IMG/VR virus record: IMGVR_UViG_2874962485_000005
DNA: 50,883 nt
Strand: one strand, 5' to 3'
DNA from: a virus
Taxonomy: Duplodnaviria > Heunggongvirae > Uroviricota > Caudoviricetes
How positions within the stretch are numbered: the stretch's first letter is position 1; each line of letters starts with the position of its first letter. A program made the position numbers and the translations under genes. Below the pieces are notes generated by a model. It did not search any database. It saw only the letters and a program-made list of their open reading frames with translations, and was not told the origin of the DNA. This document shows positions 22,571 to 32,004 of this stretch, in pieces.

Positions 22571-23424
22571 TGGCATTATTACTGGAGCCACTGCAGTTCA
22601 CCTTTATGAGTCACGCACTGCTGATTTCACTGGTAGTTTCCATACCCTGTGCGCTGCTGTCGGTCTTTCTGGTCCTGAAAGGTTGGGCACTGATGGGTGA
22701 CGCGATGAGTCATGCGGTTTTTCCTGGCATCGTGCTTACCTGGATTCTGGGGTTACCTCTGGCTACAGGGGCATTCGTCGCCGGAGTATTCTGCGCGGTG
22801 GCGACGGGATACCTGAAAGACAACAGCCGAATCAAGCAAGATACAGTTATGGGGATTGTTTTTTCTGGCATGTTTGCCGCAGGTCTGATCTTGTATATTG
22901 CAATTAAACCAGACGTACATCTTGACCATATTCTTTTCGGCGACATGCTCGGGATAACCATCGGCGACATAATCCAGACGGTGATTATTGCCGGGCTGGT
23001 TACACTTGTTATTAGCGTAAAATGGCGGGATTTTTTGCTGTTCAGCTTTGATTATCAACAGGCGCAGGTAAGCGGTTTGCATACGAGATGGCTGCATTAT
23101 GGGCTGCTGTGCATGGTTTCCCTGACCATTGTGGCGACGCTGAAAGCAGTAGGTATCATTCTCTCTATTTCTCTGCTCATTGCGCCTGGCGCCATTGCAG
23201 TACTCCTGACACAACGCTTTCATATTGCGCTCCTACTGGCGACTGGCATATCGGTAATAGTGTCAATGACTGGTGTCTGGCTGTCCTTTTTTATCGACAG
23301 CGCACCAGCTCCGACGATTGTCGTCTTATTCGCGGTCGTGTTCATCATGACGTTTACCGTTACCAGCATCAACGCACGCACAAAGGGAAACGCCCATACA
23401 CAGGATCTGTTATCACCCAATTAG
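22567..23424 (+). CDS. sitD: SitD ABC transporter permease
   Basis: 285-aa hydrophobic paralogue of SitC, overlapping its stop. Confidence 0.88.
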   Translation: MMALLLEPLQFTFMSHALLISLVVSIPCALLSVFLVLKGWALMGDAMSHAVFPGIVLTWILGLPLATGAFVAGVFCAVATGYLKDNSRIKQDTVMGIVFSGMFAAGLILYIAIKPDVHLDHILFGDMLGITIGDIIQTVIIAGLVTLVISVKWRDFLLFSFDYQQAQVSGLHTRWLHYGLLCMVSLTIVATLKAVGIILSISLLIAPGAIAVLLTQRFHIALLLATGISVIVSMTGVWLSFFIDSAPAPTIVVLFAVVFIMTFTVTSINARTKGNAHTQDLLSPN

Positions 23425-23547
23425 CACAACATCCGAGGACAGCATCGTCCGCCAGCCTACAGAAGTCCGGAAAGCCATGGAAGGTCGTTGGGAGGAGGTA
23501 CGAATTCTATCATGCAAAAAATACGTAAAATCGATAACGCCTAGAAA

Positions 23548-23617
23548 TCATTCAATACTCGCACTATCGAAAGTTTACCAGCCAACCGCGGCACGTTCCT
23601 GCATACGACGTGCCGCA
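23548..23617. repeat. Copy B of the conserved ~70-bp hairpin element
   Basis: Aligns with 3371..3440; lies between convergent sitD and tail-fibre-assembly genes. Confidence 0.6.
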
Positions 23618-23624
23618 GCTTCTG

Positions 23625-24248
23625 TTATTCCACGATAAAATTCCTAACCAAATTCAAATCCTTCAGACTATTCAGCTCTTCCTTCAGCTCCCGCTGACGG
23701 CGATAAATCTCATCGTTGCGATCGACCTGCGCCTGCACCATTGCTGCCGCCAGTTCTTCCAGTTCCGGCATCGACAGTTTCACCTGCTGATTATCGGCAT
23801 CGCTCCACGCCATATGTGTTTGTGCTGTGACAGATTTTGCCAGCATGACTACCGGGGACAGGCGGCCCAGTGAGTCGGGACCAGCATTCCAGATACGACC
23901 GTTCCATTCAAACGTGAACAGCTTCGCCTCCTGTTCTGCGCGCCATGCTTCAATTTCCTGACGTCTGGCCTCTCTGGCCGCTTCCAGCATTTCTGGTGTC
24001 ACAGTGAATGGGGCTATCTCACCCCATTTGCCGCTTTGCAGTTCCTGCCAGATTTGCTGACCCGTCGGAGCGACATCATCAGCGGTGGCTGTGTAGGGGA
24101 CTGCCTGGTCCCTGTCGTCAAAAAAAACGTCACAGTCTACTGCGCCACTTTCGGTATAACGGGGATTAATGATTTTTTTAATTTCCACGGTGCATTCCTC
24201 ACGATGTGCGAATAAAAAGCCCGGGCATTGCGCCAGAGACATGAGCAT
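23625..24248 (-). CDS. Phage tail fiber assembly-like protein (copy 2)
   Basis: 207-aa ORF immediately downstream of the tail fibre gene. Confidence 0.5.
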   Translation of the reverse strand: MLMSLAQCPGFLFAHREECTVEIKKIINPRYTESGAVDCDVFFDDRDQAVPYTATADDVAPTGQQIWQELQSGKWGEIAPFTVTPEMLEAAREARRQEIEAWRAEQEAKLFTFEWNGRIWNAGPDSLGRLSPVVMLAKSVTAQTHMAWSDADNQQVKLSMPELEELAAAMVQAQVDRNDEIYRRQRELKEELNSLKDLNLVRNFIVE

Positions 24249-25467
24249 CCGGCACCCCGGACAGGGCGCAATATGACCCCGGTAATGAATGCTCTGAACA
24301 TCCCGTAATGAAAAATTGTGGGGATGCTATATACGTTCCGGTGGGAGTACTGGGCACTGAAATCCCCACCGGTCCCAGTCGTGAGCCTCTGTATGACTGC
24401 CCCCTGACAAGTCTGATGACTTTATCACCGTCAGCTTCTCCCTGGTACGCAGCAATAATCAGCCCGCCAATGTCAGGGTCTCCCCATCTGTTGCGGACAG
24501 AGCTCGCCACGATTCTGTAAATAATATCTTCTGTGGTTATATTTATTTTCACCCAGTCAGTCAGTCTGGATATGGGCCAGTAGCGGTAGCGGGTGTGATA
24601 AATGGGGCCGTTAATGCCGTAAAAAGTAAGGGATTTGGCTCTGTACCGCGGTTCTGTTGTCTCAGGGCGTGCATCAGTCCACCGGATGCTGAGCACCCCT
24701 TCAAACCGTGTGTCGGGTATGATGATGCCGTAGGGGCCAGCAACGGAATATTCACCTGGCAGCGCATTCCTTACCCAGGCCAGGAAATCACTCTTAGTGT
24801 CAAAACGGATAACATCTTCAGGCAGAAAAGCACACCCAAAGCCGAATGCGCCGGGTATCGCCAGACGGCCTTTTGTCCGGTCGTAAATGTCGCTCTGTGC
24901 TTCCATCGTGGCCGCACTTTTCAGCCCCAGATTATCCCGGGACTTCTGTTGTGCCTTTTCGCCTGCTGCTGCGATTTCAGACAGATGGTTAGCCGTTTTC
25001 AGAGTGCCGGTCAGCGCAGCATCAATGTCATTTTTGGCCTGCTCTGCTGCGCGGGCATAACCTGCGGCTGCCGCCACATCCTGCGCCGTCTGCTGTGCGT
25101 TTCCGGCTGCGGCCCCGGCGCTCTGCTGCGCCTGCGCCACCATTTCCTCAAAGCGTTTGACGACATCCGGTTTCAGGTCGCCCTCATCAGGAGCAATCAG
25201 AAAGTCATTCAGCGTGCCGGGCTTTGAGTCCTCATATACAGCAATGTCGCCAACGTTGTACTCGTTGCGCCAGTCCTGTTTCAGATACACACCATATTTT
25301 CCAGTCCGCGCATGGAAACAGTATTCACCATCGTTTCCTGTCATCACATCAGCAACAGTGTTCATCACCACTTCCGGGGGGTTTACCCGGGATTTCAGAA
25401 TAATATGGTATCCGGACATGGGGATACCTGCGCCATCAGTCAGCGCACCTGATATCACTACAGACAT
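24199..25467 (-). CDS. Phage (side) tail fiber protein
   Basis: 422-aa ORF with Ala/Gln-rich coiled region then a variable C-terminal domain; paired with an assembly gene. Confidence 0.6.
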   Translation of the reverse strand: MSVVISGALTDGAGIPMSGYHIILKSRVNPPEVVMNTVADVMTGNDGEYCFHARTGKYGVYLKQDWRNEYNVGDIAVYEDSKPGTLNDFLIAPDEGDLKPDVVKRFEEMVAQAQQSAGAAAGNAQQTAQDVAAAAGYARAAEQAKNDIDAALTGTLKTANHLSEIAAAGEKAQQKSRDNLGLKSAATMEAQSDIYDRTKGRLAIPGAFGFGCAFLPEDVIRFDTKSDFLAWVRNALPGEYSVAGPYGIIIPDTRFEGVLSIRWTDARPETTEPRYRAKSLTFYGINGPIYHTRYRYWPISRLTDWVKINITTEDIIYRIVASSVRNRWGDPDIGGLIIAAYQGEADGDKVIRLVRGQSYRGSRLGPVGISVPSTPTGTYIASPQFFITGCSEHSLPGSYCALSGVPDAHVSGAMPGLFIRTS

Positions 25468-25490
25468 TGTTTTTCTCGCGATAAATTAAA

Positions 25491-25862
25491 TCAGGAAGAA
25501 CCTTCCGGAGAGGCGGGCCATTCAATGGCGTTGTATGAGGATTTATCAGTGATGGTGCTGAAATCCATCGCCTGCAGCGATTTCGCGTAAATACGACAGG
25601 CTTTCAGCTTTTCTTTATCTTCGTCGCTGATTAACCCCAGCAGCAGGTCTTCTTCCCATTCCCCTGTCCGGGCACTGACCTGAGCCAGAAGGGCATCACG
25701 CTCATCTTCCGCTTTGAGTCTGTAGTCAAAGACAAATTCATCATTGCGGTAAAACCAGTAACCCGGCGCGGTAATGCGGCGGTTGGCGGTAATATCAGGA
25801 ACTTCAATAACACTGGCGTTACGGGGTTCAATGCCTGTCACATCCTTACCGACCCACACCAC
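25491..25862 (-). CDS. Phage tail fiber assembly protein (second cassette)
   Basis: C-terminal ...ISDEDKEKLKACRIYAKSLQAMDFSTITDKSSYNAIEWPASPE fits the Tfa C-terminal pattern. Confidence 0.5.
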   Translation of the reverse strand: MVWVGKDVTGIEPRNASVIEVPDITANRRITAPGYWFYRNDEFVFDYRLKAEDERDALLAQVSARTGEWEEDLLLGLISDEDKEKLKACRIYAKSLQAMDFSTITDKSSYNAIEWPASPEGSS

Positions 25863-26058
25863 GCGACCGTCTCCGGTGTAAGTTATTTTAATTGTGTCCT
25901 GGCGAAATTCTTCAGCTCTTCATACCAGTTTTTTCCGTCTTCTGAAAAAAGCCAGGTGACCGAATATCGTTTTGTCATCTGATATTGTTCTGCTGTTTTC
26001 GGATTACCCGTAGTAATATTTTTTAAATGCAACATTGTTAAATACTCGCTACGTTATA

Positions 26059-26411
26059 CTAGGTGCCATTAATCAGTTTTTGCAGTGGTCGGTAATACAC
26101 ACCGTCAACGTTATCCGCTGAGTTACGGCCGGTATCCGATATCGCCATCCCTGACAGCCCGTGTCCCGAAGGTGCGCAAAATCTCCACGAAACGGTGTTA
26201 CTGCCGGGGCTGTAATACATTTCATGGCCATACCGTACATCCTGTACCCCCTCTGTTCGATATTTATAGCGGGCATCGAAGTTTCCGTAATTTAACGGAA
26301 TTACCTGTCCGTTAACAGTGAACACTATGCTGTTATCCGGGTTTCTCTGGCTGAAAAAATGCCAGCCTGAATCATCGCCAAGCTCTGCAACAACAGGCCT
26401 GGATGGATTAC
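26059..26411 (-). pseudogene. Tail fiber protein C-terminal fragment (second cassette), 5' end removed by IS600
   Basis: ORF 26059..26427 reads into the IS600 copy 3 terminus at 26412. Confidence 0.45.
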
Positions 26412-27360
26412 TGAGGTGTACTGGCAATAGCGGACACTACCATTTGTTCTTTTTTTAAGCAGTCATCTGATGATATTTTTCCCTGAAGGCTGCCGGGGAG
26501 ATATTCCCCAGACGAGAGTGACGACGCTGACGATTGTAGAAAATCTCAATGTATTCCCGTATTACTGAGATGGCTTCATCCCGGTTATTAAAACGATAGT
26601 GGCTCAGGCTCTCATTTTTCAGCGTTCCCCAGAAGCTTTCCATCGGAGCGTTGTCGTAACAGTTACCTTTACGCGACATTGATGTTTTCAGACCAGACTG
26701 CTCCTGTATGACCCGGTAATCGTATGCGCAGTACTGTGAACCTCGATCAGAGTGGTGGATTAGCCCGGCAGGTGGGCGCTGGCTCCTGAGCGCCATAAAC
26801 AGGGCTTTACCTGTCAGCTCTTTTGTCATGCGCTCTCCCATGGCGTAGCCGACAATTTCACACGTATAAACATCTTTGATGCCAGCGAGGTACAACCATC
26901 CCTCCTGTGTGGCAACATACGTCAGGTCCGCCACCCAGACCTGATTTGGTGCTGTAGGAGCGAACGTCTGGTTCAGCAGATTTGGCGCAACTGGCAGATT
27001 GTGGTTCGGGTTCGTAGTCGCTCTGAACTTGCGTTTCTGCTTACAGCGTAGCCTCAGCTCCTTACGAAGACGTGCCAGTCGGTCACGACCAACGATGATG
27101 CCATTCTCTGCCAGCTCCGTCTGGAGCCGCCGGGTTCCATATGTTTCGCGAGTGCGGATATGTGCCACCTTAATCTCCGGTTTTAGCCGCTCATCACTTT
27201 GTTTTCTGTCTGAGGGTTCATGCTGTACCCAGTTGTAATAACCGCTCCTGGATACACCAAATACCTGACACATCGCTTCAATGGGAAATTGTTGTCGCCA
27301 TTGTTCGATTAACGCGTATTTTTCAGCGACTCCTGTGCAAAATACGCTGTTGCTTTTTTT
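26412..27360 (-). mobile_element. IS600 copy 3, truncated (949 bp; most of orfA removed by IS1)
   Basis: IRR end at 26412; sequence breaks at 27360/27361 where the IS1 terminus begins. Confidence 0.88.
26455..27273 (-). CDS. IS600 OrfB transposase
   Basis: 272-aa ORF (variant residues KPEIK, HQMTA). Confidence 0.85.
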   Translation of the reverse strand: MCQVFGVSRSGYYNWVQHEPSDRKQSDERLKPEIKVAHIRTRETYGTRRLQTELAENGIIVGRDRLARLRKELRLRCKQKRKFRATTNPNHNLPVAPNLLNQTFAPTAPNQVWVADLTYVATQEGWLYLAGIKDVYTCEIVGYAMGERMTKELTGKALFMALRSQRPPAGLIHHSDRGSQYCAYDYRVIQEQSGLKTSMSRKGNCYDNAPMESFWGTLKNESLSHYRFNNRDEAISVIREYIEIFYNRQRRHSRLGNISPAAFREKYHQMTA

Positions 27361-27375
27361 GGTAATGACTCCAAC

Positions 27376-27879
27376 TTACTGATAGTGTTTTATGTTCAGA
27401 TAATGCCCGATGACCTTGTCATGCAGCTCCACCGATTTTGAGAACGACAGTGACTTCCGTACCAGCCTTGCCAGATGTTGTCTCAGATTCAGATTATGTC
27501 GCTCAATGCGCTGAGTGTAACGCTTGCTGATAACGTGCAGCTTTCCCTTCAGGCGTGATTCATACAGCGGCCAGCCATCCGTCATCCATACCACGACCTC
27601 AAAGGCCGACAGCAGGCTCAGAAGACGCTCCAGTGTGGCCAGAGTGCGTTCACCGAAGACGTGCGCCACAACCGTCCTCCGTATCCTGTCATACGCGTAA
27701 AACAGCCAGCGCTGACGTGATTTAGCACCGACGTAGCCCCAATGTTCGTCCATTTCAGCGCAGACAATCACATCACTGCCCGGTTGTATGCGCGAGGTTA
27801 CCGACTGCGGCCTGAGTTTTTTAAGTGACGTAAAACCGTGTTGAGGCCAACGCCCATAATGCGTGCACTGGCACGACAT
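27376..27879 (-). CDS. insB: IS1 InsB
   Basis: 167-aa ORF (MSCQCTHYG variant). Confidence 0.9.
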
Positions 27880-28073
27880 CCGACGCCATTCATGGCCATA
27901 TCAATGATTTTCTGGTGCGTACCGGGCTGAGAGGCGGTGTAAGTGAACTGTAGTTGCCATGTTTTACGGCAATGAGAGCAGAGATAGCGCTGATGTCCGG
28001 CAGTGCTTTTGCCGTTACGCACCACGCCTTCAGTAGCGGAGCAGGAAGGACATCTGATGGAAATGGAAGCCAC
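27798..28073 (-). CDS. insA: IS1 InsA
   Basis: 91-aa ORF. Confidence 0.9.
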
Positions 28074-28128
28074 GCAAGCACCTTAAAATCACCATCATAC
28101 ACTAAATCAGTAAGTTGGCAGCATTACC

Positions 28129-28284
28129 CGCGTTAAGTTCTTCGAGCATCTTACGAATATCACGAAGGACATTTCGGTGCTCCTTGCCTGTCAGCTCAGC
28201 AATTTCAACTGAGGTCATGGACACAAGCTGGTCGAGGTTAATGATGCTGATTTCTTGTTGTGGTTGTTGTGGTTGTTGAGACAT
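28129..28284 (-). pseudogene. Rha-like phage regulatory protein, N-terminal 52 codons, 3' end removed by IS1
   Basis: MSQQPQQPQQEISIINLDQLVSMTSVEIAELTGKEHRNVLRDIRKMLEEL...; ORF 28102..28284 continues into the IS1 end. Confidence 0.5.
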
Positions 28285-28399
28285 CGCTTGATTTCCTTTT
28301 TGTTTGCACCCTGAAGTCGCACCCCCACTGACCTACTCAAAGTCCCCAAGCGAAGGGAGACCAGCAGGACAACAGGATGCAAACAGAATGACTTTGAGA

Positions 28400-28653
28400 T
28401 TGAATACTATGATGATGACGATGTAGCTGTGCGGAGCTACTGGGAGGGTCTCTCTAGGAGCCACTCTAGGGTCTCTCTAGGGTCTCTCTAGGCATCAGGC
28501 TATACGAAACTACAGGGCATCCTAAAGAATGACGTACAGGGCCATAGAGGACCATAGAGGGCCATAGAGTTAGCTTCTGGGGGTAATGCCTAGAGGAGAC
28601 CCTAGAGAGACCTATAGAGAGACCATAGAGAAGACCTATAGAGAGACCCTAGA
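28400..28653. repeat. Short tandem repeat arrays (GGGTCTCTCTA x3, CCATAGAGG x3, GAGACC(C/A)TAGAGA x5)
   Basis: Direct reading; continues across the IS911-like insertion into 34880..34900. Confidence 0.75.
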
Positions 28654-28661
28654 TGAAGTGG

Positions 28662-32004
<3,343 letters not shown>

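Follow-up and report, generated by a model that had tools for sequence, protein, structure and literature searches.

The question of how two consecutive tail fibre/assembly cassettes come to lie side by side in the same orientation, with no invertase in sight, is raised by positions 23,625 to 26,411 of IMG/VR virus record IMGVR_UViG_2874962485_000005, a stretch of 50,883 nucleotides (nt) from a member of the Caudoviricetes that is referred to here, at its full length, as the window. The original prediction, made from the sequence alone, had described a full fibre gene with its assembly gene, followed upstream by a second assembly gene and a fibre C-terminal fragment cut by the insertion sequence (IS) IS600, and had set this arrangement beside the invertible host-range switches in which alternative fibre C-termini with their own chaperones usually sit. 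The analysis presented here indicates that the region is very probably what IS erosion has left of the distal end of a tail-gene operon, that of a temperate phage with a contractile tail from the group that includes phiP27 and the ipaH- or sit-linked prophages of Shigella and enteroinvasive Escherichia coli (EIEC).

As judged from sequence comparison, the direct tandem order of fibre and helper genes is normal and conserved, and nothing in it is missing or anomalous, since complete phages, as well as a prophage that is largely uninterrupted, have the genes in this order. Nor is the two-fibre arrangement new: public Shigella and EIEC genomes contain this structure, and what looked like a “switch without an invertase” corresponds to the standard two-fibre order of a known prophage group, left as a relic beside sitABCD in Shigella.

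Two unrelated cassettes on one strand

All genes between positions 23625 and 26427 lie on the minus strand, and transcription runs from high to low coordinates; in this direction the genes are a fibre fragment (fibre 1), a tail fibre assembly gene (tfa), a second fibre gene (fibre 2), and a gene encoding a DUF4376 protein (Table 1). The two fibre and two assembly genes are all located where the original prediction had placed them, with profile E-values far beyond chance, and the assignment of the truncated pair to fibre and assembly proteins, on which that prediction depended, is upheld by PF02413, phrog_454 and phrog_6859.

The first cassette is of the Mu S/U type and has been inactivated twice, its fibre gene having been cut by IS600 and its tfa gene frameshifted. 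The fibre 1 fragment is recognized by phrog_454 (2.4e-37) and phrog_6859 (1e-36), displays 69% identity to residues 299-403 of the intact, 410-amino-acid (aa) fibre of E. coli CFSAN029787, and aligns from about residue 302 of a 424-aa open reading frame (ORF) of EIEC strain VL40. It thereby represents approximately the last 30% of its intact homologues (410-424 aa), the 5' portion of about 70% being gone at the IS600 junction, and it also carries a premature TAG codon at 26061-26059, where homologues have TGG, seven codons ahead of the natural stop. The fragment matches Mu fibre protein S (5YVQ_A, residues 416-497; E = 6.3e-7), and the intact homologue does so at 7.9e-56. Mu U binds and assists Mu S, the two forming the 5YVQ complex, and the intact Tfa homologue matches Mu U (5YVQ_B) at 1.1e-36. 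In the window the tfa gene is split into two pieces (26035..25883, 50 aa, and 25862..25491, 123 aa), which are recognized by PF02413 (Caudo_TAP) at 3e-23 and 82.8 bits, the Pfam cut-off being 22.1. When aligned with phiP27 L55 and the intact genes of CFSAN029787 and VL40, each encoding 181 aa, the tfa region shows a 1-bp deletion between 25899 and 25898, where homologues read CCAGCGACAC and the window reads CCAG-GACAC; with one base missing with respect to three intact homologues, the gene is a pseudogene.

Fibre 2 starts with an N-terminal collar domain of the lambda Stf type, continues as a shaft rich in alanine, and ends in a distinct receptor-binding region at the C-terminus. Its residues 1-131 match positions 1-131 of the 134 positions of PF08400 (“prophage tail fibre N-terminal”) with an E-value of 1e-70, and the protein as a whole is recognized by the tail fibre family phrog_2636 (5.8e-204). 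In addition, residues 1-92 align with the collar domain of Ur-lambda Stf (PDB 9E7M, 1e-16), and the N-terminal region shows a weak but significant match to the collar spike gp40 of Vibrio phage XM1 (7KJK, 1.6e-5). The PF08400 domain makes the collar around the tail of Ur-lambda (PMC12617516), and XM1 gp40 is held at the neck by a related domain (PMC10457771). Since fibre 2 starts at an ATG of its own and has a complete anchoring domain, it is a separate fibre and not an alternative C-terminal exon. Both the fibre 2 and the DUF4376 ORFs are equal in length to their annotated E. coli counterparts in CFSAN029787, with which they share 95-98% identity.

The gene that abuts or overlaps the fibre 2 stop codon encodes a protein recognized by PF14301 (DUF4376) over residues 90-194 (1.5e-15, 58 bits, with a cut-off of 25) and by phrog_1141 (1.7e-87), the latter match beginning at residue 19 of the longer ORF. 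This longer ORF starts at ATG 24248, encodes 207 aa and overlaps fibre 2 by 50 nt; the internal GTG at 24188, preceded by a GAGGAA motif with which the stop codon of fibre 2 overlaps, gives 187 aa. The GTG is probably the true start, the resulting length being that of phage homologues (188 aa for phiP27 L57 and 187 aa for gp70 of phage vB_Apl-pPE4). By analogy with other members of its family, the DUF4376 protein is a predicted, and probable, chaperone of fibre 2. In the Alteromonas phage V22, the DUF4376 protein gp27 is essential for an active fibre and absent from the final complex (PMC7289586), while the DUF4376 gene of the Campylobacter prophage CJIE1 is needed for an active fibre and encodes an experimentally shown chaperone (PMC7882524). 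DUF4376 proteins have also been proposed to act as transient caps (PMC10579305).

The two cassettes are unrelated to each other. Their alignment, which had been recommended as a check, returned no detectable similarity between fibre 1 and fibre 2 (BLASTP E = 0.35) or between Tfa and the DUF4376 protein (BLASTP E = 0.73; hhalign probability of 0.2%, obtained with shallow profiles made from alignments of related loci, Neff about 1.8). Remote homology between Tfa and DUF4376 has been asserted in one paper (PMC7882524), and is supported here neither by BLASTP nor by the shallow-profile hhalign comparison.

A conserved gene order in complete phages and prophages

Related loci, 99 in all, were gathered via the DUF4376 protein. 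The colinear order tfa-fibre 2-DUF4376 is present in 37 of these, and fibre 1 was detected upstream of tfa in 33 of the 37. The gap between tfa and fibre 2 in the window is 23 nt (25491 to 25467), and in every one of the 37 colinear loci the fibre 2 ATG lies 26 nt from the last codon of Tfa. A further 32 loci harbor fibre 2 and DUF4376 alone, with an N-terminal domain that is less than 70%, and mostly 49%, identical. One query matched 4255 E. coli genomes, a number that was not used as a measure of prevalence because the query included 49 nt of IS600.

The same module is found in complete phages. In the Stx2e phage phiP27 (AJ298298; gene content taken from the GenBank annotation), L54 (fibre), L55 (Tfa), L56 (fibre) and L57 are followed by attR, and sheath and baseplate genes lie upstream; in vB_Apl-pPE4 the order is baseplate J, gp66, fibre, Tfa, fibre, gp70 and integrase, the block comprising gp67-gp70. 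The cassette in the window conforms to this phiP27-type module, in which fibre 1, tfa, a fibre 2 with PF08400, and DUF4376 are colinear at the end of the tail operon. It is of note that vB_Apl-pPE4 (L100, PP818812.1), recorded as an “Actinobacillus phage,” shows approximately 83% nucleotide identity over 63% of the query, which is surprising for a phage with a Pasteurellaceae host; the assignment to Actinobacillus pleuropneumoniae may be mistaken.

The closest picture of an intact locus is provided by the prophage of E. coli CFSAN029787 (NZ_CP011416, L003), which runs from head genes through a DUF3383 sheath gene, baseplate J and DUF2612 to fibre 1, tfa, fibre 2 and DUF4376, and then to sitDCBA and the chromosomal genes uspF and ompN. 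It is largely uninterrupted, with intact fibre 1 (410 aa) and Tfa (181 aa), and with one tail gene, encoding a lytic transglycosylase domain, annotated as frameshifted; the start of fibre 1 overlaps the end of the DUF2612 baseplate gene. Positions 19748-26316 of the window share 98.8% nucleotide identity with this locus, which can on that basis be taken as the undamaged ancestral state of the region. In EIEC strain VL40 (L001) the four-gene block is followed by ipaH in place of sit. RefSeq annotates the VL40 fibre 1 (L001 11100..12374) as two incomplete pseudogenes (11118-11468 and 11499-12374), yet a single uninterrupted 424-aa ORF spans both, and the split is probably an annotation artefact at a mosaic joint.

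Fibre 2 is also found outside this context. In the lambdoid locus L010, the fibre 2 C-terminus and DUF4376 stand alone after lom, in the side-tail-fibre position, an arrangement which indicates that fibre 2 is a self-sufficient fibre unit. Comparison of L010 (4533-6564) with positions 23625-25467 of the window displays a sharp mosaic joint within fibre 2, with 49% identity in the PF08400 N-terminal domain and 95-98% in the C-terminal region and DUF4376, after which ipaH follows. Between the lambdoid and contractile contexts, identity is 90-99% for the fibre 2 C-terminus and DUF4376 and 49% for the N-terminal domain, and both contexts have ipaH or sit next. It is conceivable, though rather doubtful, that the fibre 2 C-terminus, DUF4376 and the cargo (sitABCD or ipaH) travel between lambdoid and phiP27-type prophages as one exchangeable unit, by recombination within the fibre shaft. 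Were this the case, the receptor-binding end would serve as the upstream homology arm for swaps of virulence cargo. This would extend what is known of mosaic tail fibres and of effector loci at prophage ends, and would not amount to a novel type of system.

Many of the Shigella and E. coli copies of fibre 2 (L004-L098) are frameshifted or truncated, and in 38 of 90 loci the C-terminal region is not matched in one piece; eight DUF4376 copies are present in the single genome of S. flexneri SFBU1023. The damage to fibre 2 across loci is consistent with neutral decay of prophage ends.

The window copy as an orphan relic

The fibre fragment cut by IS600, as well as its end coordinate of 26411, are exactly as originally described, IS600 ending at 26412, an end that is common to four copies of the element in the window. 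The name of the element is taken from the full copy at 12466-13729, annotated in RefSeq as “IS3-like element IS600 family transposase.” The junction reads ...CTATTGCCAGTACACCTCA followed by G, base 26411 being the first base of the fibre fragment. The IS600 copy is itself cut by IS1 at 27360/27361; this cut, the 1-bp deletion in tfa and the premature TAG of fibre 1 had all been missed by the original prediction.

Table 1. Features of the fibre region and its borders in the window
Feature	Position	Strand	Remarks and profiles
IS1 copy truncating IS600	27361..28129		769-nt repeat, four copies in the window
IS600 partial copy	26412..27360	(-)	950 nt; terminal inverted repeat abuts fibre 1 fragment
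Fibre 1 C-terminal fragment, Mu-S-type baseplate fibre	26059..26411	(-)	about 117 codons; phrog_454, phrog_6859
Tfa (tail fibre assembly, Mu-U type) pseudogene	25491..26035	(-)	PF02413, phrog_136, phrog_24494
Fibre 2, complete	24199..25467	(-)	422 aa; PF08400, phrog_2636
DUF4376 gene, intact	23625..24188 (ORF extendable to ATG 24248)	(-)	PF14301, phrog_1141
sitABCD iron/manganese transporter operon	19975..23424	(+)	convergent with the fibre genes

Beyond IS600 and IS1, Pfam annotation of the remaining ORFs of the window yielded only early-region, integrase, IS and effector genes (including ipaH), and no tail or baseplate genes upstream of the two elements. The fibre/helper block is an orphan relic, and the cassette is unable to function as a part of a phage, since IS600 took approximately 70% of fibre 1 and everything upstream of it, tfa is frameshifted, and no tail genes are left. 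The ORFs of fibre 2 and DUF4376 are most probably intact because decay has not reached them yet. A promoter scan of positions 23300-26500 detected no sigma-70-like site, a result that fits read-through from the lost late operon and is not informative on its own. Shigella flexneri SFBU1023 and an IMG/VR contig match positions 17627-29140, IS600 junction included, with 99.93-99.97% identity. The outcome is a cleaner annotation of the locus, with a frameshifted tfa, a truncated fibre 1 and a likely GTG start for DUF4376, and has little import beyond annotation.

A proposed working in intact relatives

In intact relatives, the late operon ends in four co-oriented genes, namely fibre 1, tfa, fibre 2 and DUF4376. 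Fibre 1, which resembles Mu S, is encoded immediately downstream of two baseplate genes, baseplate J and DUF2612; Tfa is its Mu-U-like chaperone, and the DUF4376 protein most likely aids trimerisation of the fibre 2 C-terminus. Cargo comes next (sitABCD here, ipaH elsewhere), followed by the attachment site. Each fibre has an anchoring domain and a chaperone of its own, which suggests that the virion would bear both together, with one attached to the baseplate and the other to a collar. Such simultaneous display may confer two receptor specificities without DNA inversion, so that recognition could be either widened or staged. The case is a useful caution: a direct fibre-helper-fibre-helper order in which the second fibre has its own N-terminal anchor means two fibres carried together and not a phase-variable host range. 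An intact relative was also considered as an XM1-like particle, with fibre 2 on the neck, and this candidate was set aside: its sheath matches 8ENV and 9B42, not XM1, and its neck terminator is without a solved relative.

Several points weigh against the reading of the block as a conserved module of two fibres with dedicated helpers. The PHROGs label of the DUF4376 family is “tail fiber protein,” not chaperone, and a PDB search yielded no solved relative of the DUF4376 protein but only noise, with E-values of at least 0.05; the putative chaperone role is drawn from PF14301 membership and from experiments with distant members of the family. The docking of fibre 2 on a contractile tail is likewise putative, as is the joint presence of the two fibres on phiP27-type particles. 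Finally, prophage ends of this kind are not wholly devoid of invertases, as one S. flexneri copy (SFBU1023, L089) has a pin/hin-like pseudogene approximately 2.5 kb downstream of DUF4376, with a minus-strand ipaH gene lying between the two.

Alternative explanations

The explanation to which the original prediction pointed, a degenerate invertible switch of the type of Mu G, P1 C or e14 P that became locked upon losing its invertase and one crossover site, draws on the fact that the first cassette belongs to the Mu S/U family. In Mu, S and U sit in the invertible G segment (S-U/U'-S', with Gin). A switch of this Din class, to which Min of p15B also belongs, would have a serine invertase gene (Gin, Cin, Pin or Hin) beside it and two inverted crossover sites of about 26 bp around its variable part, and would display alternative C-termini in opposite orientations on a shared N-terminus; here both cassettes are on the minus strand, and the second is direct, not inverted, unrelated to the first, and equipped with its own ATG and a complete PF08400 domain. 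The absence of a visible invertase, as originally noted, is borne out by a tblastn search with Hin, which yielded no serine invertase in the window (best E = 3.9), nor in the CFSAN029787 and VL40 loci or in 16.7 kb of phiP27. The search does work, as the same query detects pin-like genes in loci L089 and L091. Core patterns of Din-type crossover sites gave no matches or chance-level matches elsewhere in the window, and none in the CFSAN029787 locus or L089; between 23300 and 26500 no inverted repeat exceeds 17 nt, which is the level of chance. The proposed check for crossover sites and an invertase hence lends a switch no support in the window, and the 26-nt spacer fixed in 37 loci also speaks against one.

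Two observations in relatives could nevertheless be cited in favor of such a switch. At the conserved/variable junction of the intact, Mu-S-like fibre 1 of VL40 (L001 11445-11470) there is an orphan Din-type crossover-like sequence, CTCTCGAAAACCTTGGTTTACAGGAA, which agrees with the Mu gix site in 22 of 26 positions; no inverted partner was found within the VL40 locus, and searches of the window, L003 and L089 returned no site of this type. The second is the pin-like pseudogene mentioned above (L089 9050-9622), which is frameshifted and 65% identical to Hin; a pin/hin-like gene is also present in L091, with fragments in L048, L094 and L095, at a similar distance in several copies, and neither crossover sites nor long inverted repeats were found near the gene in L089. 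These two features do not change the verdict against a switch, which is already largely refuted and must be regarded as highly improbable. The gene identities, the direct orientation and the IS600 cut in the original prediction have thus stood, while the interpretation of the cassettes as the alternative C-termini of a switch has not, fibre 2 being complete, the cassettes unrelated and their order conserved.

That the tandem arose locally, through an IS-mediated fusion of two prophage ends in a Shigella genome that made the adjacency accidental, is suggested by the patchwork nature of the window, composed of IS600, IS1, IS2 and prophage fragments, and by the presence of a second partial copy of the fibre 2 end and DUF4376 at 5644-6355. 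No IS or scar is located between the cassettes, however, and the tfa-fibre 2 junction of 26 nt is the same in complete phages and in the CFSAN029787 prophage; this conserved junction refutes a fusion, whose likelihood is extremely low. Tandem duplication of a single fibre/chaperone pair followed by divergence would account for the fibre-helper-fibre-helper pattern, which is its only, and superficial, recommendation. The E-values and hhalign probability reported above show no kinship within either the fibre or the helper pair, the helpers belong to different Pfam families (PF02413 and PF14301), and PF08400 is restricted to fibre 2, such that the chance of a duplication is vanishingly small. The reading that best accommodates the data remains that of a conserved phiP27-type module, eroded in the window.

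Cargo and neighboring features

The sitABCD operon is cargo (a “moron”) at a prophage end. sitABCD is a frequent phage moron (PMC6969025), and the location of cargo after tail fibre genes is a known pattern (PMC3530523). The junction in CFSAN029787, which reads DUF4376-sitD-sitC-sitB-sitA and then uspF and ompN, is the same as that of the window up to sit. In the window, a tyrosine integrase gene (17964-19543), split by an IS1 copy at 18133-18903, lies directly upstream of sitA; its position beside sitA, where CFSAN029787 has uspF and ompN, implies a rearrangement or a neighboring prophage.

The second partial copy of the module (5644-6355, minus strand) comprises approximately the last 120 nt of fibre 2 and DUF4376, with 98% identity over 712 nt. 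An IS interrupts this copy on its upstream side, where an overlapping ORF (6126..6737) harbors an HTH_Tnp_1 transposase domain, and the copy adjoins a convergent gene for a 571-aa ipaH-type effector (3719-5434, plus strand) with an NEL domain (9.5e-77) and leucine-rich repeats. This copy is the ipaH-linked version of the same prophage end. Elsewhere in the window, a 507-aa ORF (29231-30754, minus strand) with the reverse-transcriptase motif YADD and a maturase-like tail is flanked by transposase fragments (28662-29078 and 31346-31986), and is presumably a group II intron protein within an IS3-family element.

Comparison with known systems

The more distant counterparts illustrate single traits of the block. 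Vibrio phage XM1 gp40, of low similarity to fibre 2, sets a precedent for the docking of such a fibre on the neck of a contractile-tailed phage. In Alteromonas phage V22 (gp26/gp27) and in A5 (gp8/gp9), a fibre gene is followed by a DUF4376 gene, as in the window; the likeness is distant and at family level only, and the A5 fibre works without its chaperone. Ur-lambda Stf has the PF08400 collar domain in common with fibre 2, but is partnered with a PF02413 Tfa, whereas the partner of fibre 2 is a DUF4376 protein. The Stf-type position of lambda, after J and lom on a non-contractile tail, is not that of the window copy, whose intact relatives have sheath and baseplate genes, and the lambdoid version of fibre 2 is only 49% identical to the window copy in its N-terminal domain.

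With Mu S/U, homology is found for both fibre 1 and Tfa, although the coding sequences in the window are not intact. Unlike Mu, the window is without an inverted S'/U' pair, gix sites and a Gin-type invertase, and Tfa is followed, in direct orientation, by an independent fibre gene from another family.

The systems that match in full are L54-L57 of phiP27 and gp67-gp70 of vB_Apl-pPE4, in which all four genes recur with order and orientation unchanged, beside an attachment site or integrase. Identity between the window and phiP27 reaches 84% for the C-terminal part of Tfa, 85% for the fibre 2 N-terminal domain and 76% for DUF4376, whereas the receptor-binding parts differ, with 39% for the fibre 1 C-terminus and 29% for that of fibre 2. 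Unlike phiP27, the window has a truncated fibre 1 and a frameshifted tfa, has lost the remainder of the phage, and continues into sitABCD. The closest relatives are the sit prophage of CFSAN029787 and, grouped with it, the ipaH-linked copies of EIEC and Shigella flexneri; the CFSAN029787 prophage shares the DUF4376-sitD junction and, in contrast to the window, keeps its head, sheath and baseplate genes as well as an intact fibre 1 and Tfa.

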